This document shows positions 38,269 to 64,000 of a stretch of 64,000 nt of DNA, piece by piece. Source of the stretch: Candidatus Micrarchaeia archaeon (GTDB lineage Archaea > Micrarchaeota > Micrarchaeia > Norongarragalinales > CAINOH01). The notes under the pieces were generated by a model that worked only from the letters and a program-made list of their open reading frames with translations, was not told the origin of the DNA and searched no databases. Where the stretch lies: the NCBI GenBank assembly GCA_041663565.1, contig JBAYMJ010000001.1:1259-65258 (forward strand), written 5' to 3'. How positions within the stretch are numbered: the first letter of the stretch is position 1; each line of letters starts with the position of its first letter. Position numbers and translations under genes: made by a program.

Positions 38269-38272
38269 GATA

Positions 38273-41545: not shown

Positions 41546-41555
41546 AGTAATCTCC

Positions 41556-42312: not shown

Positions 42313-42325
42313 AGAAATCTCCCTC

Positions 42326-42982: not shown

Positions 42983-42993
42983 CAGAAATCACA

Positions 42994-45900
42994 TTATCCT
43001 GCAATGAAAGTGAACGCCCCGTTGGGCTTCTGCCCTATAAGCGAGCCGATTATGCCCGGGTCAATCTGCGAAGAGCGCCGGTAAACTGGATACTTGGAAG
43101 TCTCAATCGGCTTCGTGTACGAGTTGAACAACGAGGATATGAACCTAAGGTTGTCCTTCTCGTTGTTGTTATTGGTCACGCCGAGGAACAGGGTGTAGCC
43201 GTTGAGGTTGTCAATCTTTTCAGACCTTGCAAGCGCGACGCAAGTAGGCTTGTAAGTGCCCTTCGTGGCGGATGAATACTGCAACGACGGGCAGAAACTC
43301 GAGTCCAACGTGACGCAAGTGCCATCCTTCGCAACAGGTTCCGATACGGACAAACCATTCTGCGCATAGCAAACCCGCGTCATCGAAGGCTCGTTGAACG
43401 CGCCCGGAAGCACCCAGTCATTGAGCGGCTGTGAATACACGATAAAGTGATTGAGCATCTCGGGGTTCAAGGCCGCCTGCGAAGGCCGGAAGTCGCAGTC
43501 AGTCACGAGCATAATCAGCGCCATGCTTGCAACGCTAGCGACTGACCGCGCAATGGTCCACTTGCTCTGAGCCGCAAGAGTTGACGCTTTGGGAGTAGTG
43601 AGAAGGTCATCGGCGGTGCTCTTGGCAACGATATCCTTGATTACTGCTTCTTCGGGAAGCTTGGCTATGTCAACTTTGCTGATTACTTTGGCATCCTGTA
43701 AAACCTCTTGGCCAGTAACTCCTGTCCCAAGGTTCTCCAATTCGGTAAATGCTTTCTGGTAATCTGCAGTCACACCAGGCACCCCAGAAGGGTCAATGTA
43801 GGTGATAACGTTGTCAATTTGAGCTTGAGTATATTTCATTGTAGTTAGTTCGGTCTGAAGGCTCTTTGCAACTTTCTCCGGCAGACTAGTGTCTTTTGCC
43901 GCAGCGGATTCCAAGTTCAACGCCAATATATCCGCGCGAGCCGGAACAATGTCTATTGTGCTTGCAGCGGTCTTAGTAAGTCCGACAGTATTTGACGACA
44001 AGGTATTCTCAACAACGGATGCACCCAGGAACGTCTTGGACGCATCGTAGATTGCCGTATCAGCATTCGAATCTCCGATTGAAGCAAGCTTGGTTAACAC
44101 GGACTTTAGTGCAGATGTCTGTGCGCTTGATTTCCCAGTAGCAGCCGCCTCTGCCTTGGTAATAGCACTCGAAATGTCGCTGGACAACAAACCCTTAGCA
44201 GATAGGCCATCGCGGATCTTCTGCATCAGGAGAACTTTGTCATCGTAATCGGTAAGGGAATTGAACAACGCAGAATACGCGGTTTTTTTCTGGGCATATG
44301 GGGCTGCGATAAGAGCATCCAAAATGGTCATACCAGCTCCGACGGTCAAAGTATCTGAGAACTTCAGTACGGAAGTGCCGGTGCCAGTCAGACCGTTCAA
44401 GATCTTTTCAGCTACAGTCGCATCGCGAGCATATCCTTTCTGCACAAGTAACCTTGCAGCGACTGACCGTTCATTGAACAGCGCTTGGTATGCCGGCTGT
44501 GCCATCACGCCTATGCCAGCCGCCTTTGTCACTGCGCTGGGGCCGCCGCCACTGCCAAGTGCGTAGTTGGCGCCCGCACCCACGATTGCAGCTCCAATCA
44601 GGAGCTTCTGGTTCTTTATCAGGGTCGTTGCAGTGATGGTATTGCCATGACCTACAAGCTCGGCCCTGAGTCCGGCGACCAGCGCCGCTTGCCCTTGCTT
44701 TCCGGTCATAGCGGCAGTAATATCAATTCCGGGCGGCATCAAAAGCAACGCCTGGGAGCTGAGTGCGTTGGTCATCACGTTAGACATTGAGAGGCAGGCA
44801 ATGTTGTTTGCCTTGTAACGCGGCAAATCGACAAGGAGCTGGGTGGTGGTTGAGGTAATCCCTCCGACCAGCGTTGTTATCGCCTGCGCGGACATCACCC
44901 CGGATGAGGCCAGAAGAACGTCAAGCCCGTAAGTAGCGGTAAGGGTCTCGGCAAGTATCGTCTTGCCCTTGTCGAAGCAGTATGCGTTGTCGTCATAGAG
45001 CGTGGCCCAGCGGATGGTGCGGGAGCTGGTCTCGTCGATGCGGAGCGGCCAGCCGTAGCCTGACTCAAGCAGGAGGTCTGCAGTCTTCATGTCAAGCAGA
45101 CTGGACTCGTTGCGGTAGACGCCGATGCGGAACGTAGCAAAGACGTCGAACTTGAGTGCCTTCTCGAATGCGTGCTTAAGCTCGCCTGCACCTTCAGTCT
45201 GGTTGTCGCCGACTATGAGCTCCTGGTCGTTTCCAAGCAAAAGCAGGGAGTTTGCCAGCGTCTCCTTGCAGGAGTCAATCTTCTCAACAGCTATGTCTAT
45301 CTTGACGTCACTCTTGAACTCCGAGGCGCTTGTGAACGACTGGAGGCCGCAAATCTGGGGCTTGGCTGTGACTTTGTACACCCCGCACCCGTCGAACGCG
45401 GGCATCCCTGCCGTGTTGGTCACGGTCCCGAACTGCTCGCTTGCGATGGAGTTGAGGAAGTCGAAGGTCTGCTTCATGTTCACGACCTGCATGACCATCG
45501 TCTTGGAGTATTCGTTGCCGGTTCCGCGCGACTCGGTGCAGATTGCGTCAAGCCTCTTGGTAAGGCCATCGTCGTCCTTTCCAATGTAGTCTATTACCTG
45601 GCGCATGCCGCCCACGAAGCGCGTGTAGGCGGCAACCGACTGGTCGTAAGTGCAGAAGTGAGTTGTGCAGTCGGCAACCGAGGTCACGCCGTAGTTTGCG
45701 TCAGCTGCTGCGGCCTCAGTAGCGGAAGTGACTGCGGGAGTGGCTGTTGCAGTAGGCGAGGGTGATGCGGTTGGCGAAGGTGTCGCGTCCGCAAAGCTTG
45801 CCGATGCGGGTCCGCCTTGCGCTGCGGAGTCGGCAAAGATTGCAACCGCGTTTTCGGCACCGGCTGCGGATGCGGCCTTCACCGCAGCAACTGTAGCGCG

Positions 45901-48900
45901 CTCAAGTGGAAGCATGTCACCCATCGGCGAGGACGAGTACAGGTTGGTGGCGCTGGTCGAATAGACTATTGCGCGGACTGTTGTGACGTTCACCAGGTCG
46001 CCGGACGTGAAGGTGAACGTGAGCATCGCCTGTTTTCCCTGCACGCTTCCGCTTGCGGAAGTGCATTTCACTTCCGCGACTTCGGAGCGCTTCAGGGTCT
46101 CCGGCACTCCGGCGCAGTCAACCACGGAAGCGTCCGAGGTCTTGAAGGACACGCCCACGTCGTTGGGCCGGTTGTTGACTATGAGCAGGGGCCGCTCGTG
46201 GCCGGAGTTCTTGAACGCGAACACGCGCTTCACCCCGGTCTTCACGTCGGTGATTGCCGAGTCGTAGTTCACGAACACGTCCTTGAGGTAGGCGTCGGAG
46301 ATTCCCATGTCGCGGTTCTCGCACTTGCCTTTCACTATCTTGACCTTGACCGAAATCTCGGGCAGGTTCTTTGAGGAGACGTCCACGCCCGAAAGAGTCT
46401 TCGCGGTGAGCTTGAGCGTTCCGTCGTACTCCTTGCTCTTCACGTCGCTCTTGATGCAGCCGTACGAGTCAAGCAGCGAGTCGGGCACCTTGGCCGTTAT
46501 CGTTAGGGCGCTGCAGGCATTGGCCTTGGACGTGGCTATCACGCCGGAGTGCGAGTATTCGCCGCCGAAGTAGACGTTGTCCTTGGTGATTATGCCGAGC
46601 GGGATGTTGTTGGCTGTCGCGGACACGTTCAGCGACTGGGTAGCGGTGTTGGACACGCAGACAGAGCTGTTGGACACTGAGAGCGCGCCGTCGGTGAGGG
46701 TGAACGTGAGCGTGGACGGCTTGACCGAGAGAGCAGAGCCAGTTGTTGCGGTCACGCCCTGGGTGAGCCTGACCTTGCCCGACTCGGCGTCGGTGCAGGC
46801 GCAGGACGTGAATGTGACCTTGTTGCCGGCGTAGATGTTGACAGCAGTGTAGCCGTTGTCATCAGTGACAACCTCAGTTGCCGCGTCGAATGAAATCGCG
46901 GTCGCCGGCGGGAGGGTGTAGCCGTTTCCGGTGACGATTTGCTGGCACGAGCCGAACTTGACTCCGGTGCCGGTGACGTTCTTCTTTTCGGAGAATTGGA
47001 ACGAGACGTCCGCGCCGAAGGTCGCGCTGTACGAGTCCTTTGCGGACTGCGCGCAGTAGGACACCTGCATCTCTGAATCCGAGGGCACGCTTGCGGCCTG
47101 CGCCAAGCCGTCGCGCGCCACGCTGCTGCCGTCCGGGAGCACTATCTTGTTGGCTGCAGGCAGGACTATCGTGGAGTCGTCCTCGGTCTGAATCTCCAAT
47201 GATGAGCAGTCCGGAAGCGCGGCCTCCTTGGTGCCGGACTCGGTGGTGGTAATCTGCGTCCCTGACGGGAGAGTTATCGTCGAGGACTTCGGGATGTTGA
47301 CGCCGGAAGTGCAGGCCGCTGCCGAGCCCTTGACCTTGAAGTCAACGGCCGCGTTTGCAAGCACCTTGACCGTGAAGCCGGACTGGGTGGTGCCGGTTGC
47401 GTCTTCCGCAAACCTGGCGACTGCAAAGCCTATTGGCGCAAGCCCCGAAAGGGACGTCGTTGACACGCCGACCGTGGAGCCTGCGGGGAACGTGACCACG
47501 TCCTCGCTTTGAAGCGTGAACGAGACCGAGCCGTCCGCGTTGTTCGCACGCTCGTAATAGGAATCTATGTAATAGGTGGTGACGTAGGGCAGGGCGAGGG
47601 TGAACTCCTCCTGCGGCTTGATTATCATAGCCATGCCCGGCGATGCGCTCACTGTCGAGCCGGATGGCGCGGTGACGTAGGGCGCGGTCTTGCTGTCTGA
47701 AAGCGAAGCCCCTCCGAACACGACCCGCGTGGAGTCCTTGTTGGGCTCCTGCACAGCAATCGAGCCGTCCGAGTTCTCCTTTCGCAGGGTCTTTGCGGAA
47801 AGGTCCACCTTCATGCCAAGCGGCATCAGGACGTCAACTGCGTTGTCCGGGGTGCAGTCAACTGACGAATCCAAGTTGAGGGTTACGGGAATCTTGCGCT
47901 CGGAGCGTATGCCGTTTATAGAGGCCACCAAAGTGAGGTTGGTGGTGACCTTGCCGTTGTTCTCCATCACGCACAAGGTCTTGCGGTTGGACGGCATCAC
48001 AGCTGTAATCGTGAGGTTCTGCACGTTGGACTGCTGGCTGGTCTCGTCCTCGCCCGCAAAGACGATTTGACCTGACTCGCCGGGGTTGGGGCCAAGCACC
48101 AGGGATGCCGGAGAGAACGAAAGCCAGTCAGTTGAGGAGTCAAGCTGGTAGTTGACCAGGAGGTTGTTGGTGAGGCTGTTGTACACGTGCAGGTCAGTTG
48201 ACGACTGGTTGTCCGCTCCAAGGGACAGCGTGAGCTCAGCAGAGTCCTCCTCGGTCCCCCAGAACTCCTCGAGCGGCTTCTGGACGAACGCGGAGTTGAC
48301 CTTGAAGGGCATTGTGACGCTCTGGCGCGAGCTGCCTGCGCGCGCCTCTATGATTATGCGGCCCGTGAAGTTCTCCGAAAGCGTGCGGGTTGCCTTTGCG
48401 ACGTCAAGCACGCTGTCAAGTATCCACGTGTCGAACTTGACGTCCTGCGTCGCGCCCGCCTCGAGGGTGAAGCTGGATTCCGAAAGGAGCGTGCCGGTGA
48501 TGCGCGGGCTCTTGTCAAGCACTATTGAGGAGCGGACGTTGACCCCGTTCCCCAAAAGGTTGGAAACGGTGATGGTGTCCGAGTTGCCGGCCTTCGAATC
48601 AACGACCAAGTCGAGTATCTGCGTCGGCGAGACCTCGACTATCTTCTTTGCAGTAACTGGAATCGAGCCGTAAAACTGCGCGTAGCCCGTCGCTGTCACC
48701 GTGAAGTCCGCGCTGCCAATCTTGTCGGGGTTGACTCCCTCGACCAGGTACTTGCCGTCCTTGCCTTCGTTCTCGTCGCCCGAACCGTCGGCCTGGTATG
48801 CGGAGTCGCCGAACACGTCGGCCTTGGAGCCTATGGCGATGTGGGCGCCCTCGATGGGAGTGCCGAAGGCGTCGGTGACAAGGAAAGTTACTGCGTTGTC

Positions 48901-51654
48901 AACAAGCGCGGAAACGTATGACGGCGACACGCCCACGTTCAGCTCGTTGTTGGAGGCGGAGAGTATCCTGCCGGAAAGGTCCATGCTGTTGGCCTGCTCG
49001 CCCTGGTAGTCCGCCTCGATGGAAAACGAGAGTGCGTCGGACACGCGCAGGGCCTTGACCTTGAACTCGGCGTCCACGTTGCCTGAATCGACCGAGACGA
49101 GCGCAAGCTGTCCGTCGTCCTGGTCGGTGATGGTCGCATCGCCGGAAGGCGAGCTGCCCGATACTATAGTGGCGGTCTTCTTTGAATTGGAGATTACGCG
49201 GATGTCGTAGGGCCCGTTCTGGGAGATTGACTTCACCGTGAGCGTGAACTCCTCGGGGACCGTTGCCTCGAAGTTCTTGGAATACTCGCCGCGCGTTGAC
49301 GCGACCTTGGCCTCGAGGCACTGGCTGTCAGCGCACACGCCGCCGAATGAGATTGCGTACTTGGTCACGTTCACCGCGGCAAGCTGCTCCTGGCCCGCCT
49401 TGACGCTGTCGTCGGACGGGTCGCGCAGGGTGCCGTTTGCGGTGGTGTATGCGGTGCGGAAGCCAAAGAGCACGGTGCCGTTCTTGACCTGGCGCGTGGT
49501 GACCTGGACGTAGGCCTCCTTGGTGCCAGCGAAGGACGGGTAGGATAGCTCGGCCCACTTGTACTCTATCGAATTGGAAGCGGAGTCGTAGGCGGTCTCG
49601 ACCGAGCCTGACGCGGAAGAGTTCGCGACAGCGGACGACACGCCATAGGAGTCGCCGCCGGAGGTGGAAGCGTCGGCGCCGCCGTCAAACCCCGAGATGT
49701 AAGCGTCAAGCGCGCTCGCGTCGCCTGTTGTAGTGCCCAACCGCACGTGGAGCGCCGCCTTCGAGAACGCCATGCCCGGCGAATTGAGGAGGAACTTCGC
49801 GTTGTACGTGGTGGACGGCTCAAGCGAGGATGCCTTGTTCCCCGAAAGGTCGTACAGCCCGAGGAACACCGCCTTCACGTTCTCGGCAATTGAGCTTGAC
49901 AGGAGCTCGACCTGCACTTCCTTCTCTACGTTGGGCACCACCTGCACCTGCGCGGACGAGTATGCCGAGTAGCCCGTCGCGGCGACTTTGTAGTAGCCCC
50001 AGCCCTCGAGTACGTTTACTGAGCAGATGCCGTTGATTGTGGTGCACGAGCCGGACTCGGTTGTCGATGCGTCGACAACAGCGCCGGTGATTGCCTTGCG
50101 CGAGAACCTGTCGATTACGCGGAACTTGAGAGTGCCCTGCTGCGGCAGGAGCCGCGCGGTGAGCGTGGTGTAGTTCTTCCCCTCCTCCCCGTCTGCCGTG
50201 ACATCCTTTGAAGATGAATACCCGCTCCTGCCCTTTGAGGACGCGAAGGCATACACCGATGAAAGGGGAACGTCGGAGAAATCAACCGCGCCGTCGGAGC
50301 CAGTAGTGCCTTCGGGCAGGCCCAGCGCTCCGGCATTGCCGAAGAGGGCAACTGACGCGCCTGAGATGAGGCCGTCGGACTCGTCAGTCACCTTGACCCT
50401 CACCTTTGCCGCGTTGTCCTTGGTGGACGACGCCAGCACAAGCTTGCAGTCAGCGCCGGCAGTCAGGGCCATCCCAGTTGGGAGGTACTTTGACTTGTAT
50501 GCGGTGACCCAGTAGGTCTCGGTCGGAAGAAGTGAAAATGATGCAATACCGTCCGCCGCGGTCTTTGCGCTCGACTGCTTCTCGTCATTAAGATAGAGGT
50601 TCACAGTTGCGACGCCCGCCTTGTTTCCCGCCTCGTCAACTATGGAGCACGAAGTCCTTATCGAGCCGTCCGAGCCGGGCTTTGAAAGCGCAATCTTCAC
50701 CGTCTTGAACGCGGGGTCCGCAGTGTAATCAAGCACCGCCTCGTCATAGCCGTCAAGTGACGCCATGAACCGGAACTTGCCGCCCTTCGCAAGCTTGACC
50801 GTCGCCTTGCCGTCGGCGTCCGCAGTCAGGCTGCGCAGAAGAAGGCCCGACTCGGTGATGACTCTGATTGTCGCGCCGCCCAAGGACGCGTTTGCAGCAG
50901 AAGTGGAAAGCTGGACTATGACGTCAACTGTAGTCTCGTCCGCAACGGGATAAAGGTAAATTGAAATCGGCGCCGGGTCCTCGGAGCCCACCTGCAATAC
51001 GGTAGAGTTCTGCGTGTAGCCCTCGGCGTTTGCGATTATCGTGTAGGTGGCCGACTTGGGAAGCGAGAATGTCACGCTCGTGCCCTGCTTCGAGGCTACG
51101 ACGGACAGGAGCGAGTTCTTGACCGAGACCGCGGGGATTGCCGCGCCCTTGACGCCGTCCACGTTCACCGTGATGGTGGCGTTCGCGTTGATGGGCTGCT
51201 CCTCAAGCTTGATTGTCTGCGCGCGCGTCTGAGACTCGGAAATGTCAACTGTCGAGAACTTGGCCTTGTAGTTTGCCGAGCTCACCGAGACGTTGTACGC
51301 GGCAAGGGGAACGTGCGCAAAGACCGCTACCCCATTCGAGTCCGAAAGGTTCTGGAAGGACTGCGTGTGGTCCGCAAGGCTGGTTATCATCACTTCCGCG
51401 CCGGAAATCTCGACTCCGGTAAGGTCGCGGACGTTGATTGTGATGGTGCCCGTCGCGGGGGCCATGTTGGAATAAGCAAGGTAGCCTACTGCGGCGATGA
51501 CGATGATGAGAAGCCCTAGGAAGAACGGAGCGGGCGGGATGCCGTTCTGCTCAAGCGAATCCGACGCGCCGCGCAGCGGCAGGCCCTTCTCGTCGGTCCA
51601 GTCGAGAAACTCCTGCCACCTTGTAGAAAGCCCCTCAAGGAAGTCATCGAGCAT
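42994..51654 (-). CDS. giant surface protein 1 (2886 aa): N-terminal TM anchor, about six CarboxypepD_reg/PEGA-like repeats, large beta-rich body, PT linker, distinct C-terminal ~900-aa module
   Basis: Single uninterrupted 8.66-kb ORF. N-terminus ...EQNGIPPAPFFLGLLIIVIAAVGYLAY. The repeats look like TGTITINVRDLTGVEISGAEVMITS...SDSNGVAVFAHVPLAAYNVSVSSANY. PT linker ATPSPTASPSPTATATPAVTS. The antisense ORFs are all short. Confidence 0.8.
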   Translation of the reverse strand: MLDDFLEGLSTRWQEFLDWTDEKGLPLRGASDSLEQNGIPPAPFFLGLLIIVIAAVGYLAYSNMAPATGTITINVRDLTGVEISGAEVMITSLADHTQSFQNLSDSNGVAVFAHVPLAAYNVSVSSANYKAKFSTVDISESQTRAQTIKLEEQPINANATITVNVDGVKGAAIPAVSVKNSLLSVVASKQGTSVTFSLPKSATYTIIANAEGYTQNSTVLQVGSEDPAPISIYLYPVADETTVDVIVQLSTSAANASLGGATIRVITESGLLLRSLTADADGKATVKLAKGGKFRFMASLDGYDEAVLDYTADPAFKTVKIALSKPGSDGSIRTSCSIVDEAGNKAGVATVNLYLNDEKQSSAKTAADGIASFSLLPTETYWVTAYKSKYLPTGMALTAGADCKLVLASSTKDNAAKVRVKVTDESDGLISGASVALFGNAGALGLPEGTTGSDGAVDFSDVPLSSVYAFASSKGRSGYSSSKDVTADGEEGKNYTTLTARLLPQQGTLKFRVIDRFSRKAITGAVVDASTTESGSCTTINGICSVNVLEGWGYYKVAATGYSAYSSAQVQVVPNVEKEVQVELLSSSIAENVKAVFLGLYDLSGNKASSLEPSTTYNAKFLLNSPGMAFSKAALHVRLGTTTGDASALDAYISGFDGGADASTSGGDSYGVSSAVANSSASGSVETAYDSASNSIEYKWAELSYPSFAGTKEAYVQVTTRQVKNGTVLFGFRTAYTTANGTLRDPSDDSVKAGQEQLAAVNVTKYAISFGGVCADSQCLEAKVASTRGEYSKNFEATVPEEFTLTVKSISQNGPYDIRVISNSKKTATIVSGSSPSGDATITDQDDGQLALVSVDSGNVDAEFKVKALRVSDALSFSIEADYQGEQANSMDLSGRILSASNNELNVGVSPSYVSALVDNAVTFLVTDAFGTPIEGAHIAIGSKADVFGDSAYQADGSGDENEGKDGKYLVEGVNPDKIGSADFTVTATGYAQFYGSIPVTAKKIVEVSPTQILDLVVDSKAGNSDTITVSNLLGNGVNVRSSIVLDKSPRITGTLLSESSFTLEAGATQDVKFDTWILDSVLDVAKATRTLSENFTGRIIIEARAGSSRQSVTMPFKVNSAFVQKPLEEFWGTEEDSAELTLSLGADNQSSTDLHVYNSLTNNLLVNYQLDSSTDWLSFSPASLVLGPNPGESGQIVFAGEDETSQQSNVQNLTITAVMPSNRKTLCVMENNGKVTTNLTLVASINGIRSERKIPVTLNLDSSVDCTPDNAVDVLMPLGMKVDLSAKTLRKENSDGSIAVQEPNKDSTRVVFGGASLSDSKTAPYVTAPSGSTVSASPGMAMIIKPQEEFTLALPYVTTYYIDSYYERANNADGSVSFTLQSEDVVTFPAGSTVGVSTTSLSGLAPIGFAVARFAEDATGTTQSGFTVKVLANAAVDFKVKGSAAACTSGVNIPKSSTITLPSGTQITTTESGTKEAALPDCSSLEIQTEDDSTIVLPAANKIVLPDGSSVARDGLAQAASVPSDSEMQVSYCAQSAKDSYSATFGADVSFQFSEKKNVTGTGVKFGSCQQIVTGNGYTLPPATAISFDAATEVVTDDNGYTAVNIYAGNKVTFTSCACTDAESGKVRLTQGVTATTGSALSVKPSTLTFTLTDGALSVSNSSVCVSNTATQSLNVSATANNIPLGIITKDNVYFGGEYSHSGVIATSKANACSALTITAKVPDSLLDSYGCIKSDVKSKEYDGTLKLTAKTLSGVDVSSKNLPEISVKVKIVKGKCENRDMGISDAYLKDVFVNYDSAITDVKTGVKRVFAFKNSGHERPLLIVNNRPNDVGVSFKTSDASVVDCAGVPETLKRSEVAEVKCTSASGSVQGKQAMLTFTFTSGDLVNVTTVRAIVYSTSATNLYSSSPMGDMLPLERATVAAVKAASAAGAENAVAIFADSAAQGGPASASFADATPSPTASPSPTATATPAVTSATEAAAADANYGVTSVADCTTHFCTYDQSVAAYTRFVGGMRQVIDYIGKDDDGLTKRLDAICTESRGTGNEYSKTMVMQVVNMKQTFDFLNSIASEQFGTVTNTAGMPAFDGCGVYKVTAKPQICGLQSFTSASEFKSDVKIDIAVEKIDSCKETLANSLLLLGNDQELIVGDNQTEGAGELKHAFEKALKFDVFATFRIGVYRNESSLLDMKTADLLLESGYGWPLRIDETSSRTIRWATLYDDNAYCFDKGKTILAETLTATYGLDVLLASSGVMSAQAITTLVGGITSTTTQLLVDLPRYKANNIACLSMSNVMTNALSSQALLLMPPGIDITAAMTGKQGQAALVAGLRAELVGHGNTITATTLIKNQKLLIGAAIVGAGANYALGSGGGPSAVTKAAGIGVMAQPAYQALFNERSVAARLLVQKGYARDATVAEKILNGLTGTGTSVLKFSDTLTVGAGMTILDALIAAPYAQKKTAYSALFNSLTDYDDKVLLMQKIRDGLSAKGLLSSDISSAITKAEAAATGKSSAQTSALKSVLTKLASIGDSNADTAIYDASKTFLGASVVENTLSSNTVGLTKTAASTIDIVPARADILALNLESAAAKDTSLPEKVAKSLQTELTTMKYTQAQIDNVITYIDPSGVPGVTADYQKAFTELENLGTGVTGQEVLQDAKVISKVDIAKLPEEAVIKDIVAKSTADDLLTTPKASTLAAQSKWTIARSVASVASMALIMLVTDCDFRPSQAALNPEMLNHFIVYSQPLNDWVLPGAFNEPSMTRVCYAQNGLSVSEPVAKDGTCVTLDSSFCPSLQYSSATKGTYKPTCVALARSEKIDNLNGYTLFLGVTNNNNEKDNLRFISSLFNSYTKPIETSKYPVYRRSSQIDPGIIGSLIGQKPNGAFTFIAG

Positions 51655-51726
51655 AGATATACGAATTAAATAAGCGTGGCGAGGGTATAAAAAGAATTAG
51701 AGTGGAAGCGCTGCCAAAGGCAAGGG

Positions 51727-51742
51727 GCAGGCAGATGCCTGC
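51727..51742 (-). terminator. short inverted repeat (GCAGGCA-GA-TGCCTGC) just downstream of giant gene 2
   Basis: Read from the sequence, 30-45 nt after the stop at 51774. Weak as a terminator, since the hairpin loop would be small. AT-rich promoter-like sequences for giant gene 1 follow at 51660-51700. Confidence 0.3.
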
Positions 51743-51773
51743 AGCCGCAGCCCGCCGGAACTCCGCCCCGATT

Positions 51774-57700: not shown

Positions 57701-59006
57701 CCTTCGGAAGGTATCCTGCAAGGTATGCCGTAGCGTAGGAGGAGATGTTGTCAGTCGAGAAGTTGGTGTCGCCGTTGCGGGCAACTGCCTTGCCAAGCAG
57801 GGTGTCCGAACGCTCGCTGTAGAGGTTTACCTCCGCTGCAAGCGGCTTGCCCGACTCGTCGGCGACCGAGACGAATATCGGCGAGAGGCCGGAGGATGTC
57901 GATGCGGCCATGGTTGCGGTGATGACGTTCTCGTCAGAAGCCACCAGATAGTCGTAATAATAGTAAGGGTTGTACTTCCCGAGGTCGGCACCCGATGAGG
58001 AGATGCTGACAATTGCCTTGGTGCCTACTGGCACGTTCGCTATCGCTGCCTGGCCGCCGCTTGTGGACGCGGTGCCTAGGACCGAGCCGAGCGAGCTCGT
58101 CAGGACAACCTGCGCCTGCACGGGCTGCTGCTGTGAGTTGATGACCTTGACTATGACAGTGGTCTTCTTGTCGCACGCGCCGTTTGCGCAGTCGCTGTCC
58201 GACTTCTTCAGCGTGACCGTCTGGAGGAGACCTATCTTGGGGTCAATGCCGAAGTCCGTCGCGTTCGAAAACCCGGTGCGGGTGATGGTGACAAGAAGGG
58301 AGTCTGTCGAGGGGAGCTGTATCTTTGAGATGCCCTTCGCGTCGGTGTTGTACACGCCTATCTGCACGCCTGCAAGCGACTTTGCCTTCACCATCGCGCC
58401 CGCGATGGGAAGCCCGTCCTCGTCAACAACCGTGAGGCGGTAAACGTCGGGCTGCTTCTCCACGTCCTCCATGCTTATCTTGATTGTCGGGGTGCCCGCG
58501 GTCACTTCGCCGAGCGAATCGCTGTATTCCTTGAAGTTGGTCGCCGAGACGGTCACGTAGAGCTGCTTGCCAAGCGGTACGCCGGAGAACGTGGCCTTGC
58601 CGTCGCTGGACGTCGAGGTGCCCAGTATATCGCCGTTCGTGGAGTCGCCAACGTAGAGCGTGACCGTTGCGCCGTCGATTGCCTGGCCCGACGCGGAAAG
58701 GAGCGATATCGAGACCGTGCCGGTCTGGCCCGCGCCGGTTGCGACCATGAATATGCCGAGGCCCACGAGGAGCACGACCAGCACGCCTATGGGGAAGCTG
58801 GGTATGCCGTTCTTCTCTATCGGCTCGACGAAATACTCGTAAACAGGGACCCTAACCTTATCCTCCAGGTAGTCCATCAGCTCGTAGTACTTGTCTTCGA
58901 CGGAGAAGTACGCCTGCTTGAGCGGGTCGAGCGGCGATGAGTTCTTGCTTTCCTTGTCGGCTTTTTTTCCCTGAGCTGTTTTTTCGGACTTGTCGGAGGA
59001 CGGCAT
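51774..59006 (-). CDS. giant surface protein 2 (2410 aa): N-terminal TM anchor, CarboxypepD_reg-like repeats, conserved body shared with giant 3, Cys-rich modules, PT linker, Cys-rich C-terminus
   Basis: Uninterrupted 7.2-kb ORF. N-terminus ...IEKNGIPSFPIGVLVVLLVGLGIFMVA. Repeats such as GTVSISLLSASGQAIDGATVTLYVG...SDGKATFSGVPLGKQLYVTVSATNF. Cys-rich block CEDDDECESGNCNSTDMC...; linker ATPTATATASPAPTGSPVPTATVSPSATPTVTVTPG. Confidence 0.8.
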   Translation of the reverse strand: MPSSDKSEKTAQGKKADKESKNSSPLDPLKQAYFSVEDKYYELMDYLEDKVRVPVYEYFVEPIEKNGIPSFPIGVLVVLLVGLGIFMVATGAGQTGTVSISLLSASGQAIDGATVTLYVGDSTNGDILGTSTSSDGKATFSGVPLGKQLYVTVSATNFKEYSDSLGEVTAGTPTIKISMEDVEKQPDVYRLTVVDEDGLPIAGAMVKAKSLAGVQIGVYNTDAKGISKIQLPSTDSLLVTITRTGFSNATDFGIDPKIGLLQTVTLKKSDSDCANGACDKKTTVIVKVINSQQQPVQAQVVLTSSLGSVLGTASTSGGQAAIANVPVGTKAIVSISSSGADLGKYNPYYYYDYLVASDENVITATMAASTSSGLSPIFVSVADESGKPLAAEVNLYSERSDTLLGKAVARNGDTNFSTDNISSYATAYLAGYLPKAVSGLKPGSREKLVLKKILAGTAGSFEVQVVDADGSTPVAQATLTVRSSDGRNAGYPAVRTNADGAATIGNVSLGVDYAVYADKSPKTGKSALYRAYEGDATKITVKMNPTTAKVVVSTRDAVNDTGIYATVTAYGADMANTSCTTSYSNSYACELTVRAESNVYIHTAASYYETLVSPAMVLSTGDSKAYTAYLLQSAFKDQFFVKFAGLFDEKGNNVTLVDKGRQYDAKFIVNVPSGSASSRMGFMVRAGTVGKDSLAATDSKEKFAILSDGTTTASTDPVFAASYVPSTSCSNDRKSNSEVGYFKWVAFSFANESGSREITVRILSKTDAASSDKLQINYNGWYSAGGSASDTYLRSPEDSTFGSALRSASLDYCYAASNKAVFSVANGRSTCTSSACISLDFSDGTANYGPSYLGEVNSPLVAKVEVRLLKAVESPRIYVGSDNGNMQIRNYSIVTDSESKVLDSSAKAISNVTVQLLPFSDPASLSFYMLPVVPVTSGAFTIRFYDGQTALVSATGYVTLEGEGKMKIVYVKPDRINASQYSDLSIKVADANSGNAITDATVSINETTGSPFDGSVPEPMTGSSVFSSGQGYNGIYTFSDVYPTANGVFEVIVEQPNYATVRQNVSVNSDDFLSVTPLDLDVCGKTDERSIKIRNSLPLNVSIVASSSCAIMSSYVYSQTAYDETSVPTSYYNATSYVAYDSFSQSYKFTLPESRLGIFTVRPAAYGKDCSITFNAEGRDKSRDVQTVKYTTCAADSADKFLSVTPSKVVCTSEEGNCDTSATITVANNLSSDVEGTVSVTIKGTGLVLDSSSALAGAKPGASLAGTGLVAGKTASFDGTLVSLDSGYTFEMARGASTDFTVVPASTNKTLQLLVTAVAGPRKASTTVEIKNCPGTIDPVGPKIVSSYPVSGAVITYQPFNILLTTDKPAVCKLDNLYTFPSGTNSQVHTMAMSLNAGTDTAPLSEGMNVFSATCCNLAENGGKCGTGATVITFNFTVKNATTKANGESCEDDDECESGNCNSTDMCQKASTELCGPLGIVCPDSCESTVKEGDSCKDSLSECCESGTDCISNVCTKTTSNGLGSTCDYYAQNCNNPLTCREKPDDSSKDLCTCNYAHKDDRTLNGCPSDTPVCVQISNMQFGTCVSTSQASNPPVGCYGCIICNSAGTGCAAIPSATPTATATASPAPTGSPVPTATVSPSATPTVTVTPGASSSVVYSLKDKKFYDSTGTTELARYDGCGLLQSCSKKNLGLSPLLPVSGLILEVRNDLGDGSTAKGVTFASLYATLTNMDGTSVTSQDIPKDGSIYVLVTYPPKADVKDMMKTDSSSSWVYLSSTHSTDSYVQIGFNWGSAYLYLVPDFDTSSAKYAFGVGLYDKTDDMFVPFDSDGNAQFAYDTAYTSRTLDKSIYVFSNLLVGKDTMFFRVKTQNSGPLGLYEGTWVNLTPGYIASAAGDANPGVFSYDKIQVKACSTPSSCANENDNLDPLKAVLHPFDSSGIALTHEKMAEEVNAALAELRNLDASCTAYNTKKKTAFNALDLLKLGAVGSTGKRVLPDLYVTANEGGALRVLWFHYDPTAMGYAVPKDITGTFEYPLAAGDSDTRIALPMAGSASSSRPLYLFAYPGQKANTAYDCDLGLTDGTVCSSKCTGSQIYRNSGSYRLINDAEQTIVAGYSTCSEKDVTDKYLNAVSGIVERNPRLCCSSGVSSSDDGACLPLKPDCYLSAAVSTSSTSACPHSSPCDSAGTDAAKCSDANYVSGTNNGLFLYNVYLNPANKCIVPSTGGACTACGLDATCYAAVKTLSAGLTCAQTAVSAPAATPTVSSASPTPAAASTANGAKPGVSVRPFLSGSCAVDAVGSKAGITTDADLASVQISCYPVTGAENCLAKYTASFPDSATIPTTNYVCASQNRIYSGQCYSCNAATEACIVTGSLPGDYYCTAFCKTDSQCASNDCTNPHESATGKYGICNR

Positions 59007-59093
59007 AGGCTAACACTAATTTAAAACGGGCGATTGGGGCTTAAATAGGTTGCCGTATAGGAAAGCCCGACTTTATGCGGGAAGGTGCGTCGG

Positions 59094-62000
59094 CTACGAC
59101 GTACTTACTGAGCATATCGACTGTGGCGGGCAGATGTTCGGGAACCGCTGGTTGAATCCCGGCTCGTAGGGGCAGTCGGGGCTGCCGCAGCTTCCCTCGT
59201 AACTGCACATCGAGCATCCCTGACATCGCTTGTCCGACCGCAGGCATTTCTCGGTCTTTATGCCGCCCTGCACCGTCGGGAACGCCCTCCAGGACATGTC
59301 GTCGCAGCCGTTGCCGCCATCCCCGCACATCAGGTATTCCGTGTGGAAGCTGGACAGCCACTCGGTCCGGATACCGCAAGGTATGGTATAGCAACCGCCA
59401 CCAGGTGAGCACACCCTGCACATCTTGCAGCTGTCAGGCGAGATGCAGTTCTTGTCATACTGCGTGTACTCGTAGGTTATGCACCGTTTCTCCGGATACG
59501 CCAAGGCGTACGGGTCGAAGCCCTTGTCCTGCAAGCCGCCGTTGAAATTGGAGTACTCGAAGTGGGTCGAATCGCACCCGTGGCTGAAGCAGTCAGTGCA
59601 GTCCTCGCTGTCGCACGCCCCTGCGGAGTACGCCCTGCTGCCGTCGGACTTCACGTAAATCCAGTTGTTGGATGCGGTGATTACGCACGCGTCCTTGCTC
59701 CCCGCAACTAGGCACTCGCCGTTGCGCGACATCTTGGACACCGGGCACTTGTACTGCGGGTCCTCCTCGGTGAAGCCCGACACCGGGTTTGCGTACGCCG
59801 CGCCGCCGGACCCGCCCCCGCCCACGACCACCTTGAGACTACTTGCGAGTTCGGGAAGCGCCGCCTTCTCGGCGGACGTGCCGTCGCGATAGAAGTTGCC
59901 CTTGCTGCCCTTGACGTAGAGCGAAGACTCGGGCGTGTTGCACACCCCGCCGGGGTACTCGCAGAAGTAGCCCATGTTGTTGCGCTGCCCGGGGTATGCG
60001 AGAAGGTATTTCTGGTACGGCGACGCGAGCAGTGACAGCTTAGCCTCCTCGTCCAGCGTGCCGGGGTACTCGAAGGAGGGCGTGATGTCCTTTGCAGGGC
60101 CGTAGCTCATGCTTGCGGGGTTGTACTCCAGCCACACCACGTGCATCATCGCGCCTTCCTCGGCCGCGAGGAACACGTCGGAGAACCCGCCGCTGCCGTC
60201 GCCGATGCGAAGCGCATCAGTCATTGCGGAGCTGAAGATTGAATCCTTGCCCAAGTCCGAATACGTCTTGCGCAGGCTTGCGGTCTCAACCATCGCGCGG
60301 CTCGCCTTGGACGACATCGCCGAGTAGGCCACCGCGCCGCCGCCTGTAGAAAGCGGGTCCGCAAAGAATGCCATGGCCGACCGGGCCAGGGTGAGATTGC
60401 TGCTCCTGTGGCTGGTCTGCTTGACTGAATTTATGTGCATCGGCCAGACGTAGAAGGTCTGGTCGAGGTTGGACGCCGAGCCGAGGTTGCTTATGCCGTT
60501 GAAGCCCGGCCGGACTATCTTGGAAGGCTGGGAGGATGTAGTGCCTAACCCGAGGCCGTACGCGCCGGAGAGCATCACGTTGCTGAACAGGAACCCGGAG
60601 TAGCTCTCGCCGTGCTGCGGGCTGAAGTAGTACGCGTCGAACGAGGAGAGGTCGTTTGCGTACGGCACGAACAGGTTGAGACTGTTTTCGAACACGCCTG
60701 CGCTGAAGGCGTAGTTGTCCGTGTTGACCACGTTCGGCTGCACCGCAAGGGGCACCGAGGTCCTGCCGGAGCCGAAGTCGGGCATCACGTTCAGCGTTGC
60801 TGAAAGCGCGGAGAACCTGACCCGGCCCTCCGAGCTCGGCAGGTAGCCCGCGCCGTATCCCCAGGAGTTGGCATCAATCACGCTCGGGTCCATGTCCGGG
60901 AACGTCACGAGCACGTCCCTCACGCCGTTCGCCGCCACGTCTATCGATGAGGTTATCTTCGTGCCGCCAAGCTCGTACACCCCGAGCCTGTTGCCGTCGG
61001 TGTCGAACGATACGCTCCCCTTTGCTGCCTTGTGCGAGTTGTCTATGCGCAGCACGAAGCCCGCCGAGGGCACCATGGACGAGACGTCGAGGGTCACTTG
61101 CGCTGATGACAGTGCTGCGCCGTTGAGGTAGAACGAGTTGAGGTCGGTCCGGTAGGACACGAGCTTGCTTGCCGCGACGGGCGCGGGGTCGGTGCAAACG
61201 AACTGGTCCAGGTCGCACACCTGCGGGGAAGTGCACTCGGAATCCTTGGTGCAGCGCGTGCCGGTTACGCAGGCGTTGTTGCTGCATATCTTTCCGGACG
61301 GGCAGGTGGTCTTTTCGGTGTCGCGCGTGCATTCGACGCACGCGTACGACTTGGTGCAGGCCTTCTGGGTGGACGTGCAGCCGTTGTCGGGATAAGTGGA
61401 AAGCGGGTCGCAGCGGAGGCACTTTCCTGCGCTGCCGCACACCAAGCTGTCGCAGCAAAGCTGGCCCTTGTCCGTCTTGGAGCAGGCCGTGAACTCCTTC
61501 CTGCATTGCGCGGCAACGCACTTGAGAGTGGAGGTGTCGCACACGCTGCTTGCGTTGCAGTAGGTGTCGTTGCGGCACCCTGCTGTGCAGTTTCCGTTGA
61601 CGCATATCTTGCCAGTCCCGCACATGGCCTGTTCGGTTGCCTGCGTGCACGGGGCCGGCGAAGGGGACGGGCTTGGCGACGGCGAAGGCGATGGCGACGG
61701 GGTGGGAGTCAAAGTCGGGGTCACGTACTGGAAGTCGAAGCTTATCGGGACGTTCGCAGTCGTGCACTCGCCGCCCTTGCTGGACGGGTTGCAGCAGCCG
61801 ACGTAAGCCGTGTTGTAGCCCGGCTTGAACGCAAACGGCGTGCCCGAACCCTTGTTGTAGACCAAGTCGGTGCCGTAGTCGTAAGTACCGCCGGAGCTGG
61901 ACTTTTGCGAGAGCAGGTAGGGCAGCTGCTTTGCGGCCACGTTTTTCGGCCCGATGCGGCAGTACGCGTAAGTGTCAACCGTGACAAGCGCCGGGACGGA

Positions 62001-64000
62001 CTCTGTGGTGATCTTGGCGTAGTCCTTGGGCGAATAGGAAATGATGTCCGGCGCGGCCTCGCGGGTGGGCACCGGGCAGTTGTCAAATGGGATGGTGATG
62101 TTTGCCACTCGGCTTCCGTCGGTCGAGTTGAACGTCATCATGACAGTCGAGTTTGCTGTCATCGGGTACAGCGTAAGCGACGTCCTGCTTCCCCGCGGCA
62201 CGGCAAAGAACAGCGGGGTTGAAAGCGACTGGTTGGCGCCTCCAATCTCCACCAGGAGGCCGGGGGCGTACGCCTGCACGGTGACGGACCCGGGCGCGGA
62301 CAGGGTGTTTGAGACGTTCAGGACCGCGGGCCGGTTGCACCTGTGGCTGCTTGCGGTGTTGGAGACGCGCGAGGGCGACACCGAGAGGAACTCGCTGGAC
62401 GCGGATTCCGCGCAGTTTGAATAGGCGACCGTGCGAGTTGACTGGCTCCCGTCGCGGGCGGACGCCGTGATTGTGACCGAGCAGGACTTGCCCCAGGCTG
62501 CGGGGGCTATGGTGATGCGGCCCTGGCTTTGGAAGCCAAGCGGGAGGAAGTACGTCAGGCCGGACTGGATTATCTGCGACGTGTTGTCGGTCCACGGCGC
62601 GTCGGTGCCGTTGCGCACCTGCGAAAACCCGGTCACGCCGATGCACCCGGATTTGGATGCGGTTACCGAGACGTTCGTGTCAAGCACGTGGCCGTTGTAG
62701 ACGTCGACTTCGCCCTCCTCGCCGCACGCCTCGACATCCGAAGTTTCTACGGATAGGAAGTCGACGCCGTCGACCGTAATCTGCTCCCTTGCGTCGAGGT
62801 AGTCCGGGTGAGTTGCCACTATGTCGAACGCACCCTTTTCCGACGTGAATACGTTGGGAATCCAATATTTGCCCGAGATTCCCTGCAGCGGGTCCGCAAT
62901 GGAGCCTCCGAGCACGGAGTACTTGCGCCCCGAGAACGTGGTGCCGGTAGTCTCGTTGAGGGTGATGAGCGCGTCCTCTACTGCCGAGGAGGAATAGTAG
63001 TCGGAAAGCGAGACGTTGAGCGTGTACGTGCCCGCGACGCTCATGTTGTCGGGGGTTGCATAGATGCGGAGCTTCCCGACCCCTGTCTGGGTGACGTAGC
63101 CGTATGCGCGCGAAAGCTTGGTGTCGCCGTCGTAAAGGTCGGCGTAGAATGCCGAGAAGTCGGCCTTGTCCGCAAACGTCACGTTGAGCAGGATTACCGC
63201 GCTCGAGTAGAACGGCGTGAGGTTCAGGTCAACCCCAGTCCTTGCGCCCGCGTCACCCGAGAGGTTCTGCACGTCGGTCGAGACGTTGTATTCGTGCAGC
63301 CGCGCCTTCTGCGAGGCAGAGAAGACGACTATGCGCGGGTTGACAACGGCACGGAGCAAGTCAACGCTCACCCGGGCGTAGAACGACCTGCCGATTATCC
63401 CCTTGTATTGGGAAGTCTGGTTGGAGTCGGAATCGTAGAAGCCCACGCTTATGCACGCGTTTGTGCCGCAGTAGGATTTTCCCGAACCGACCGAGTAGTC
63501 GCGGTAGTCGGATTTTGCGTAGCACCAGTCGCGGGTCTCCGAGCGGTTCGACGAGCCGAAGTCGGCATCTGCCGGGATGTGCAAATAGGAATCGACTGCG
63601 CTTGACGGGGTGTACCACGCCGAACTTGAGACGCGCAGCTTCTCGTCGGTGTACGCGTTGTCCTTCACCAGGACGCGCGCGACCACTTCACGCACCCCGC
63701 TTGCGTTGTCCAATAGGTAGTAAGCCCACTTGTAGTAGCCCTGCTCGTTCGACGAGTTGCGCACGTCGGGAGTACAGGACACGGAGGGCCGGTAGGAGTA
63801 GCTCATCAGGTTCACGGGCACCTGCGGGTATTGCTTGGGGATTATCGCGAAGTGCTCGAGCGGGTCGAGCGCGCTGCGGTTGTCGAAGCCCGCAGTGCCT
63901 ATGCGCAGGATGAACCCGGCCTTGTATGCCGAGGCGTTCGTGGGGATGTTGACTATGAACTTAGCGTCGTACTGCGCACCGCGCTCGACTGAGGTCACGC
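59094..64000 (-). CDS. giant surface protein 3 (more than 1634 aa visible; N-terminus beyond the right edge), paralog of giant 2
   Basis: The ORF is open to the window end. The first visible residues (GAQYDAKFIVNIPTN) align with aa ~660 of giant 2 (GRQYDAKFIVNVPSG), so about 650 aa are missing. Shares YFKW/YYKW, SLDYCYA/TRDWCYA and the PS linker + Cys-rich modules (CGTGKICVNGNC, CPSGKICSNNAC). Confidence 0.8.
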   Translation of the reverse strand, partial: VTSVERGAQYDAKFIVNIPTNASAYKAGFILRIGTAGFDNRSALDPLEHFAIIPKQYPQVPVNLMSYSYRPSVSCTPDVRNSSNEQGYYKWAYYLLDNASGVREVVARVLVKDNAYTDEKLRVSSSAWYTPSSAVDSYLHIPADADFGSSNRSETRDWCYAKSDYRDYSVGSGKSYCGTNACISVGFYDSDSNQTSQYKGIIGRSFYARVSVDLLRAVVNPRIVVFSASQKARLHEYNVSTDVQNLSGDAGARTGVDLNLTPFYSSAVILLNVTFADKADFSAFYADLYDGDTKLSRAYGYVTQTGVGKLRIYATPDNMSVAGTYTLNVSLSDYYSSSAVEDALITLNETTGTTFSGRKYSVLGGSIADPLQGISGKYWIPNVFTSEKGAFDIVATHPDYLDAREQITVDGVDFLSVETSDVEACGEEGEVDVYNGHVLDTNVSVTASKSGCIGVTGFSQVRNGTDAPWTDNTSQIIQSGLTYFLPLGFQSQGRITIAPAAWGKSCSVTITASARDGSQSTRTVAYSNCAESASSEFLSVSPSRVSNTASSHRCNRPAVLNVSNTLSAPGSVTVQAYAPGLLVEIGGANQSLSTPLFFAVPRGSRTSLTLYPMTANSTVMMTFNSTDGSRVANITIPFDNCPVPTREAAPDIISYSPKDYAKITTESVPALVTVDTYAYCRIGPKNVAAKQLPYLLSQKSSSGGTYDYGTDLVYNKGSGTPFAFKPGYNTAYVGCCNPSSKGGECTTANVPISFDFQYVTPTLTPTPSPSPSPSPSPSPSPAPCTQATEQAMCGTGKICVNGNCTAGCRNDTYCNASSVCDTSTLKCVAAQCRKEFTACSKTDKGQLCCDSLVCGSAGKCLRCDPLSTYPDNGCTSTQKACTKSYACVECTRDTEKTTCPSGKICSNNACVTGTRCTKDSECTSPQVCDLDQFVCTDPAPVAASKLVSYRTDLNSFYLNGAALSSAQVTLDVSSMVPSAGFVLRIDNSHKAAKGSVSFDTDGNRLGVYELGGTKITSSIDVAANGVRDVLVTFPDMDPSVIDANSWGYGAGYLPSSEGRVRFSALSATLNVMPDFGSGRTSVPLAVQPNVVNTDNYAFSAGVFENSLNLFVPYANDLSSFDAYYFSPQHGESYSGFLFSNVMLSGAYGLGLGTTSSQPSKIVRPGFNGISNLGSASNLDQTFYVWPMHINSVKQTSHRSSNLTLARSAMAFFADPLSTGGGAVAYSAMSSKASRAMVETASLRKTYSDLGKDSIFSSAMTDALRIGDGSGGFSDVFLAAEEGAMMHVVWLEYNPASMSYGPAKDITPSFEYPGTLDEEAKLSLLASPYQKYLLAYPGQRNNMGYFCEYPGGVCNTPESSLYVKGSKGNFYRDGTSAEKAALPELASSLKVVVGGGGSGGAAYANPVSGFTEEDPQYKCPVSKMSRNGECLVAGSKDACVITASNNWIYVKSDGSRAYSAGACDSEDCTDCFSHGCDSTHFEYSNFNGGLQDKGFDPYALAYPEKRCITYEYTQYDKNCISPDSCKMCRVCSPGGGCYTIPCGIRTEWLSSFHTEYLMCGDGGNGCDDMSWRAFPTVQGGIKTEKCLRSDKRCQGCSMCSYEGSCGSPDCPYEPGFNQRFPNICPPQSICSVSTS

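Follow-up and report, generated by a model that had tools for sequence, protein, structure and literature searches.

Micrarchaeota are host-dependent ectosymbionts (PMC5498576, PMC8784108), and giant surface proteins have been proposed as host-interaction factors in other DPANN archaea (PMC6642349). The SPEARE proteins of Nanohaloarchaeota are 3300–8500 aa long, mostly extracytoplasmic, single-transmembrane (TM) proteins, which occur several per small genome and take a percent-level share of it; they were proposed as host-interaction factors, and one variant is N-terminally anchored (Hamm et al, 2019, PMC6642349). In ‘Ca. Mancarchaeum acidiphilum’ Mia14, a few very large strain-specific surface proteins occupy ~2.5% of the genome and were proposed to function in host contact (Golyshina et al, 2017, PMC5498576), and SLP_Mh of ‘Ca. 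Micrarchaeum harzensis’ is a 101-kDa protein with TIGR01564/TIGR01567-type S-layer domains (bioRxiv 10.1101/2021.04.28.441871). Here, we analysed 64,000 nucleotides of Candidatus Micrarchaeia archaeon (assembly GCA_041663565.1, contig JBAYMJ010000001.1, positions 1,259 to 65,258), hereafter called the window, which contains three giant genes on the minus strand. They were named G1 (42994–51654; 2886 aa from an ATG start, ~302 kDa, pI 4.8), G2 (51774–59006; 2410 aa from an ATG start, ~252 kDa), and G3 (59094–64000, continuing past the window end). The reading that we favour, with modest confidence, is that these giants are fibrillar surface proteins with exchangeable distal modules contacting another cell, most likely the host.

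The giants resemble in kind the SPEARE proteins, the Mia14 surface proteins and the bacterial immunoglobulin (Ig)-repeat adhesins, with a leader and a core of their own. Like the SPEARE proteins, they are large single-TM proteins of a DPANN archaeon, present in several copies and with a percent-level genome share; unlike them, they showed no detectable sequence relationship to SPEARE, and their conserved part is an N-terminal leader with a beta-sandwich stalk. SPEARE proteins are recognised by serine protease and adhesion domains as well as restriction-endonuclease domains in one giant protein, and when the three giants and 15 family members were scanned with Pfam, neither a protease nor an endonuclease domain turned up. 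The Mia14 proteins, compared by description only, were reported to contain the domains PKD, beta-propeller (Kelch/YVTN), CARDB and LamG, and the giants had no detectable match to any of them. SLP_Mh is likewise an acidic, and probably glycosylated, micrarchaeal envelope protein with an N-terminal hydrophobic segment, but the NCBIfam scan of G1, G2 and G3 returned no family at E ≤ 0.01 and thus no TIGR01564/TIGR01567 match. Halomucin was not among the homologues found, a result obtained without direct comparison with the halomucin sequence. The bacterial giant adhesins with Ig-like repeats (the Ig-like region of PrgB, Bap, SiiE and the RTX adhesins) also present a distal region on a tandem beta-sandwich stalk, and PrgB (8beg) and Bap (7c7u) were among the structural matches of the modelled core, although at the level of generic domain arrays (TM-score < 0.2). 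They differ in anchoring, which is by LPXTG, by type 1 secretion system retention or in the outer membrane for the bacterial adhesins and through an N-terminal TM helix with leader for the giants, which have neither RTX nor LPXTG nor a known ligand-binding domain. As in the polymorphic toxin systems described by Zhang et al (2012, PMC3482391), the G1 locus combines a conserved N-terminal part for delivery with a C-terminal module that recombines and with co-varying tandem genes downstream; it departs from them in having no recognisable toxin or immunity family, homologous modules of ~900 aa and no orphan cassettes. The giants are unrelated in sequence to the families tested, namely known S-layer domains, SPEARE-type enzymatic domains and thioester proteins.

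Strain A, the source of the window, was compared with strains B (JGI 3300027958, 1.2176 Mb contig), C (JGI 3300030493, 1.2267 Mb) and D (ENA ERZ27247099). Between B and C, residues 1–1800 of G1 are 98–100% identical and the last ~1000 aa about 33%. The identity collapses from about residue 1800, near an Ala/Pro/Ser/Thr-rich linker (aa 1901–1986; 45697–45954, minus strand, as are all locus features given below) that was delimited by a low-complexity scan and lies directly upstream of a variable C-terminal module, named G1-CT (aa 1987–2886; 42997–45696), for which no relatives were found outside its clade. On the upstream side of the giants, the gene p406 is 99.8% identical in the same pair, and downstream of G1 the products of p218 and of the next gene, s, are only 34% and 22–28% identical, respectively. 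Additional G1-CT alleles were obtained from a metagenome scan with the G1-CT alignment, and six lineages giving 15 strain pairs were compared. Over the 950 stalk residues that precede the linker, these lineages are 76–82% identical (98% for B vs C), and the G1-CT modules fall into at least four allelic classes at 30–76% identity, in which A, B and D share 67–76%, lineage L018 stands at ~50%, L019 and L020 at ~39% and C at ~31%. All the alleles are mutually homologous, with conservation of the alpha/beta subdomain at the N terminus and of the last ~170 aa and variation in the helical middle, and the ratio of nonsynonymous to synonymous substitution rates (dN/dS) within a class is low. The mutual homology and low within-class dN/dS indicate that the alleles are old and maintained rather than rapidly diversifying. 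Different G1-CT classes, those of L017 and genome C, occur side by side in the JGI metagenome 3300030493, whose loci L017 and L022 carry G1 tips 65% and 33% identical to that of the window, which points to standing polymorphism within one community.

Across the 15 strain pairs, the identity of G1-CT was correlated with that of p218 (r = 0.975) and of s (r = 0.990) and did not track that of the stalk (r = −0.16), and neither did that of p218 (r = −0.14). The GC content at third codon positions (GC3) was 0.80 in the G1 stalk, 0.65 in G1-CT, 0.58 in p218 and 0.49–0.52 in the s genes, as compared with 0.70–0.85 in the neighbouring genes. At the level of the window, positions 40000–45700 form a compositional island (GC ~0.50, GC3 0.49–0.65), which sets in at the linker within G1. 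Neither the core nor G1-CT nor s had relatives on viral contigs, and thus a viral origin of the low-GC3 cassette is unsupported. These results together show that distal G1, p218 and the s genes form one low-GC3 block subject to mosaic allelic replacement. The other two giants also show modular replacement between strains. In G2, a Cys-rich module with a Pro/Thr linker (aa 1446–1655; 54042–54671) is replaced between B and C, where it is 15–35% identical against 97–100% elsewhere in the protein, and in G3 the distal 900 aa are only 15–37% identical between A and B or C, the identity over aa 100–1400 being 72–92%.

The p218 gene (42326–42982) starts 11 nt past the G1 stop and encodes 218 aa, in which an N-terminal TM helix is joined to a putatively PsbP-like domain of ~150 aa. 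Its best Pfam match was PsbP_2, with E 1.6e-4 and 22.2 bits, below the cut-off of 27, over profile positions 1–182 of 184. The PsbP-type matches of two other alleles were weak (E 0.012–0.058; PF18933, PF01789), and a p218 profile gave no match against PDB. In a distant Micrarchaeota genome, a giant of 5161 aa is directly followed by a homologue of p218, so that the pairing of giant and p218 is older than this clade. Downstream of p218, three tandem s paralogues (40267–42312) encode proteins of ~190 aa each, which are charged, predicted to be soluble, without TM helix, 70–73% identical and provided with a basic tail RRPPGGKPF.TPEEFERGKMPPKRRGPTA; at the DNA level they are 71–81% identical with a period of 703–767 nt, and the strains carry between one and three of them in tandem. 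The s proteins had no family match in Pfam, NCBIfam or PHROGs, and in the same scans the giants, p218 and p406 yielded only beta-sandwich repeats. A tblastn search with five G1-CT alleles covered the remainder of the window and, for six loci, the sequence downstream of G1; it yielded nothing at E ≤ 0.01 and hence no orphan cassette. The earlier description of this DNA made from the letters alone, hereafter the sequence-only reading, had bounded the locus at 42994 and so did not include the co-varying downstream genes at 40267–42982.

A single strong hydrophobic segment was found near the N terminus of each giant (residues 37–67 in G1, 65–95 in G2 and 68–103 in G3). The leader preceding this TM helix is conserved, with the family consensus ..ED.YY...D.L.....P.Y..FV.PIE..GIPSFP, and in G1 the leader and helix (aa 1–67; 51454–51654) carry the motif ...FLDW.DEKGLPL......LEQNGIPPAP followed by the hydrophobic helix. 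The repeats that follow span ~550 aa before the core. In G1 they form an array of about six CarboxypepD_reg/prealbumin-like beta-sandwich repeats (aa 68–590; 49885–51453) with PF13620 matched at E 3.5e-29 in five stretches and with weaker Pfam matches to SpaA, bMG3 and Ig_DR_A0283-like domains; four CarboxypepD_reg stretches were counted in G2. PF13620 scored above its gathering cut-off of 32.3 bits in all three giants (101.4 in G1, 55.8 in G2 and 32.7 in full-length G3), and the match names the type of the repeat, not its function. In the remaining ~1700–2300 residues per giant, no other curated Pfam cut-off was passed except by one SpaA prealbumin-like domain in G2. The G3 repeats could be scored because the full-length protein of 2298 aa was read from the source contig (L001:3017-9913); the window holds its C-terminal 1634 aa, and the N-terminal 664 aa that fall outside, with leader, TM helix and repeats, follow the same plan as those of G2.

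The core was delimited in G2 (aa 640–1445; 54672–57089), where the blocks QYDAKFIVN, YFKW and DYCYA lie in six to seven beta-sandwich domains. AlphaFold2 modelling of this region on a 36-sequence alignment gave an all-beta structure of six to seven beta-sandwich domains with a mean predicted local distance difference test score (pLDDT) of 86.2. Foldseek comparison of the model with PDB returned only generic Ig/macroglobulin (MG)-like arrays at TM-scores of 0.11–0.19, including hydin-like ciliary proteins, titin, alpha-2-macroglobulins, complement, PrgB and Bap, and comparison with the viral library BFVD likewise gave only generic domain-array matches. Because these fold matches are to generic domain arrays, the conserved half is predicted to be a stalk and not an enzyme. 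A zinc protease reading was rejected, as no HExxH motif occurs in G1, G2 or G3. The copy of the family core in G1 (aa 594–1110; 48325–49875), with the block TYNAKFLLN ... EYKW, was located by BLASTP against the G2 core and by alignment, and it is followed by a beta-rich distal stalk (aa 1111–1900; 45955–48324) that is 76–98% identical among strains and had one weak match, to BACON_2, only.

Beyond the core, Pro/Thr/Ser linkers and Cys-rich modules are present in the giants, and the cysteines of G2 (76) and G3 (71) are gathered in two zones. The distal region of G2 (aa 1656–2410; 51777–54041) consists of a beta-rich domain homologous to the G3 distal domain (26–28% identity to G3-type proteins by BLASTP) and a Cys-rich C-terminal end. 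G1-CT begins with an alpha/beta subdomain containing conserved Cys, continues with a long helical stretch and closes with a beta-rich end; between the last two, a hydrophobic helix (aa ~2697–2720) precedes the conserved motifs DCDFRP...NHF...NGYTLF. This second hydrophobic helix of G1, WTIARSVASVASMALIMLVT (window ~43495–43566), lies ~170 aa from the C terminus, is kept in all alleles and stands directly before the invariant DCD(F/Y)RP motif; from its sequence it could be a second membrane span, in the cell's own or another cell's membrane, or a buried helix. No distal region had a match in Pfam, NCBIfam, PHROGs or PDB by sequence or profile, and the PDB searches with G1, G2, G1-CT and a full-length G2/G3 profile returned only a collagen-adhesin B-repeat (E 1.7e-4). 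The fold search with the low-confidence G1-CT model (pLDDT 37.9) gave no match below E 0.3, from which no conclusion was drawn. N-glycosylation sequons were dropped as an argument, since our own composition-based estimate gave no enrichment in G1 and G2 and only ~1.8-fold in G3.

The sequence-only reading had described G2 and G3 as colinear paralogues, and they are 33% identical over 797 columns (E 4e-114) with the blocks QYDAKFIVN, GY(F/Y)KW and D(Y/W)CYA in the places it had named; in part of the distal region their identity is ~27%. Its grouping of all three as paralogues holds for the family core, which all of them share; the similarity of G1 to G2 is weak (25% over 830 columns, E 9e-17), and thus G1 is a separate, distant paralogue that has only the N-terminal ~1100 aa in common and a distal part of its own. 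The plan it gave for G1 and G2 was borne out for the one N-terminal TM helix and for the CarboxypepD_reg repeats, which are above cut-off; the N terminus is presumed to be cytoplasmic. The more than 1500 aa of beta-rich sequence for which it recognised no family contain the SpaA domain of G2 as the only part beyond the repeats that passes a curated cut-off.

The family was defined here by a leader with TM helix, ~550 aa of beta-sandwich repeats and a core with Y-x-A-x-F..N.P, KW and C....C blocks starting from residue ~590–670, and G1, G2 and G3 all have the leader, the repeats and the core blocks. A HMMER search of the core profile against 1.84 billion representative proteins, which also maps the distribution of the QYDAKF-containing core that the sequence-only reading had proposed to map, gave 369 representatives at E ≤ 1e-3, of which 287 remained at ≤ 1e-10 and 78 at ≤ 1e-30. 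Most of the 150 best of the 369 are 2000–5100 aa long, and in most of these 150 the core starts at residue ~590–670. The leader was recognised by phmmer in 88–99 of the 162 family proteins examined, and the distal modules are narrowly distributed among these 162 (G1-CT in 7, G2-CT in 7 and G3-CT in 3–8). All nine of the named clusters sampled are Candidatus Micrarchaeota or Micrarchaeia, and 15 diverse members had beta-sandwich Pfam families only. Judging by the sequences, this is a phylum-wide Micrarchaeota family with a conserved leader, specific to Micrarchaeota among the named clusters sampled. Word-based homologue searches had found three proteins with G1 and one with the G1-CT alignment; they missed the cluster of G1 itself and an 80%-identical orthologue, so that their counts are unreliable and understate the family, and the HMMER scan gives the reliable number. 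The GTDB scan used exact peptide patterns and consequently found one locus only. Public annotations of the members are generic (‘hypothetical’, ‘carboxypeptidase-like regulatory domain-containing’, ‘Ig-like domain-containing’), the NCBI record of G2 being ‘MAG: carboxypeptidase-like regulatory domain-containing protein [Candidatus Micrarchaeia archaeon]’. The family had been thought uncharacterised, and the giants indeed had no family match in the NCBIfam, PHROGs and PDB-sequence searches, no description of the giant family was found in the literature searched, and a cryo-electron tomography study of a Microcaldus co-culture does not mention such proteins.

The integrity of the giant genes was examined in independent assemblies and in related genomes. 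The window was identical to the ENA contig ERZ27247350:k141_1386509 (253,792 bp) across the 21,007 nt compared, and a second assembly, Logan SRR6484787, contains the same three intact open reading frames (ORFs). At least five related genomes, namely B, C, D, L010 and the distant L011, have a syntenic triad with similar gene lengths, the triad-bearing genomes include a GTDB Micrarchaeota bin from lake sediment, and in a much more distant triad genome the first giant (P0018) lies on a 1.30 Mb contig. Orthologues of G1 in four other genomes are 2884–2910 aa long, and those of G2 (n = 6) are 51–82% identical. By the Nei-Gojobori method, dN/dS between A and B or C was 0.15–0.30 overall, 0.15–0.26 for G1 and 0.19–0.21 for G2; in windows of 150 codons it ranged from 0.07 to 0.35 along all of G1 and G2 and rose up to 0.32–0.66 only in the saturated distal part of G3. 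No tandem or long direct DNA repeats were found inside the giant genes. The two assemblies, orthologous triads, low dN/dS and lack of repeats exclude frameshift, pseudogene and collapsed-repeat readings as far as sequence data allow. The three back-to-back uninterrupted minus-strand ORFs of the sequence-only reading were thus upheld at 2886, 2410 and, in full length, 2298 aa, and the gaps that it had put at ~90–120 nt measured 119 nt between G2 and G1 (51655–51773) and 87 nt between G3 and G2 (59007–59093). Against a genome background of ~60% GC, both gaps contain AT-rich, TATA-like stretches, which are TTTTTATA and TTATTTAA upstream of the G1 ATG and CTATTTAAG and GTTTTAAATTA in the second gap. 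The AT-rich sequence called promoter-like is therefore present, and each giant gene is probably transcribed from its own archaeal promoter. Together the giants, which are 244–302 kDa, acidic (pI 4.8–5.1) and beta-rich, take 22.8 kb or ~1.9% of a genome sized like those of the relatives B and C (~1.2 Mb). The small-genome archaeon that had been surmised is in fact a DPANN member, Candidatus Micrarchaeia, with relatives on contigs of 1.22–1.30 Mb.

These observations were weighed against other explanations of the locus. The main one is a polymorphic-toxin-like or self/non-self system, in which G1 would be a contact-dependent effector, G1-CT would act on or insert into a neighbouring cell, and p218 and s would be protective or chaperone proteins. 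We regard this as a serious but clearly minor possibility. The long conserved N-terminal part, the sharply bounded variable C-terminal part and the co-varying small downstream genes are as in the polymorphic toxins treated in PMC3482391, and a variable C-terminal module on a conserved N-terminal part, with the break at or near a linker and a shift in composition, is what was found in G1. The strain-variable number of tandem s genes, the foreign-looking composition of the cassette, and the hydrophobic Gly/Ala-rich helices and conserved Cys/His-containing motifs of G1-CT speak in the same direction. PsbP-like folds include effector chaperones (DUF1795/Eag), which was counted for this explanation too. 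Yet the searches of alleles and family members detected no known toxin, nuclease or protease domain and none that forms pores, PHROGs gave no hit, and the module of ~900 aa is several times the usual size of a toxin tip. Moreover, the alleles are homologous to each other instead of being unrelated domains, the tblastn search found no orphan C-terminal cassettes downstream in the window or six other loci, and dN/dS in G1-CT is as low as in the stalk. A general envelope component was considered improbable; in that case the giants would build a coat for protection or structure, as an S-layer-associated scaffold, a sheath or a spacer, without any specific partner, and the distal variation would arise as escape from receptor-using viruses. 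The large size, acidity and beta-rich, linker-containing make-up of the giants, their ~1.9% share of the genome in three genes and the conservation of the family across the phylum would suit such a coat, and virus-driven diversification would likewise give allelic tips. But known S-layer membership, which would have made the giants ordinary, was looked for in NCBIfam with no archaeal S-layer family matched, the Micrarchaeum S-layer protein is a different protein of 101 kDa, lattice-forming proteins are usually conserved between near-identical strains, and the joint swapping of a membrane protein and cytoplasmic proteins with the tip would be left unexplained.

The idea of a membrane-anchored alpha-2-macroglobulin-like protease trap draws on weak bMG3 and MG4 Pfam matches in several family members and on the Foldseek matches to bacterial and eukaryotic alpha-2-macroglobulins and complement proteins; the similarity is that of generic beta-sandwiches (TM-score 0.11–0.19, root mean square deviation > 30 Å), G1, G2 and G3 have no CxEQ motif, and no thioester or alpha-helical TED domain was detected, so this explanation is disfavoured as very unlikely. 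That the giants are an assembly artefact or decaying pseudogenes has a negligible chance: the concern is generic to giant ORFs in metagenome assemblies and found no specific support, and against it stand the agreement of two assemblies, matching-length orthologues on contigs up to 1.3 Mb, purifying selection in every window and the lack of repeats. The favoured reading of fibrillar host-contact proteins has points against it as well. The N-terminal leaders are acidic, so that the positive-inside rule does not decide the topology. The Pfam and PDB searches of the distal regions turned up no recognised domain for ligand binding and no lectin domain, the AlphaFold2 model of G1-CT on a four-sequence alignment was poor (pLDDT 37.9) and did not reveal the nature of the tip, and the long, helical, Gly/Ala-rich and partly hydrophobic middle of G1-CT is not typical of adhesin tips. 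Plain linkage in one recombining block could by itself make p218 and s co-vary with G1-CT, and synteny alone is weak evidence here, because an unrelated leucyl-tRNA synthetase gene is also conserved next to the locus. The sequence-only reading had interpreted the giants as N-anchored adhesin-like proteins, plausibly host-attachment or envelope structures; the N-anchored strings of beta-sandwich domains were borne out, and a role in attachment to a host is proposed from the architecture and the pattern of variation.

Upstream of G3 (L001:363-2909; also L004, L005 and L011), the neighbours are conserved even in the distant genome. They encode a 175–206-aa exosortase/archaeosortase-family protein (TIGR04178, 33 bits vs a cut-off of 23) with readable Cys, N..R and HD motifs, a 406–418-aa Cys-rich protein whose N terminus (..RAFIAAPLLG and a hydrophobic helix) resembles an archaeal class III (prepilin-type) signal, and a YdjM-family membrane protein. 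Despite the exosortase/archaeosortase-family neighbour, no C-terminal sorting signal was found in any locus protein, and an archaeosortase/exosortase substrate was rejected as a C-terminal TM helix is lacking from G1, G2, G3, p218 and p406 alike. Elsewhere, the window encodes dihydroorotase, UvrABC, GlpX, a class I aldolase, an [FeFe]-hydrogenase-like protein and many ORFs without family match. The UvrB-UvrA-UvrC row (21721–28959, plus strand) is complete, with proteins of 681, 937 and 526 aa. The hydrogenase-like protein of 363 aa (16543–17634, minus strand) corresponds to the catalytic portion of group A [FeFe]-hydrogenases, with E 7.6e-118 against NF040763 and a match that falls short of the family cut-off, and is unusual metabolic content for a small DPANN genome. 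A run of ORFs without family match at 34400–40200 includes two basic proteins (534 and 503 aa) and, at 39824–40195, a small protein with two TM helices; strains C and D have an equally ordered row of proteins that correspond by size only.

In the favoured reading of the giants as host-contact fibres, each protein would be anchored in the symbiont membrane through its conserved N-terminal leader and single TM helix, and would form an outward-reaching stalk from about a dozen beta-sandwich domains, with about six CarboxypepD_reg-like repeats followed by the six-to-seven-domain core. Flexible Pro/Thr/Ser linkers and disulfide-rich modules would come after the stalk, with a large distal module at the far end. 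The stalk may thus be a conserved presentation device and the distal modules the working ends touching another cell surface, most likely that of the host of an obligate episymbiont. Recombination near the linkers would exchange distal modules between strains, and the exchanged block of G1 would also bring p218 and s, which may serve the G1 tip as chaperone, docking or protective partners. The three giants could then be three different tips on one cell. The outward topology, the extended shape of the stalk, the contact with a host and a physical interaction of p218 and s with G1-CT are all parts that we infer. More speculatively, and we hold it only tentatively, the G1 tip together with p218 and s could be a new archaeal polymorphic cell-cell recognition or delivery system, in which a partly membrane-active exchangeable module on a stalk of tens of nm would select or breach a host or competitor strain and strain-matched partners would guard or prime it.

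Host recognition and attachment by DPANN archaea is an unresolved problem, for which the only giant candidates in the literature searched are the unrelated SPEARE proteins of Nanohaloarchaeota. The present locus defines a phylum-wide unannotated family with 369 representative clusters, which takes about 2% of the genome per cell, and cassette-like tip exchange together with membrane and cytoplasmic partners was not found described for archaeal giants in the same literature. The tip class could serve as a population-genetic marker against host identity, and the giants are targets in cultivated Micrarchaeota co-cultures. If they are plain adhesins, they would be a useful but unsurprising addition; if G1 and its partners are a compatibility or delivery cassette, archaea would have a conflict or recognition system of a new kind. 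Should the recognition or delivery system be true, the allele classes of the tip would define host range or compatibility groups in Micrarchaeota.

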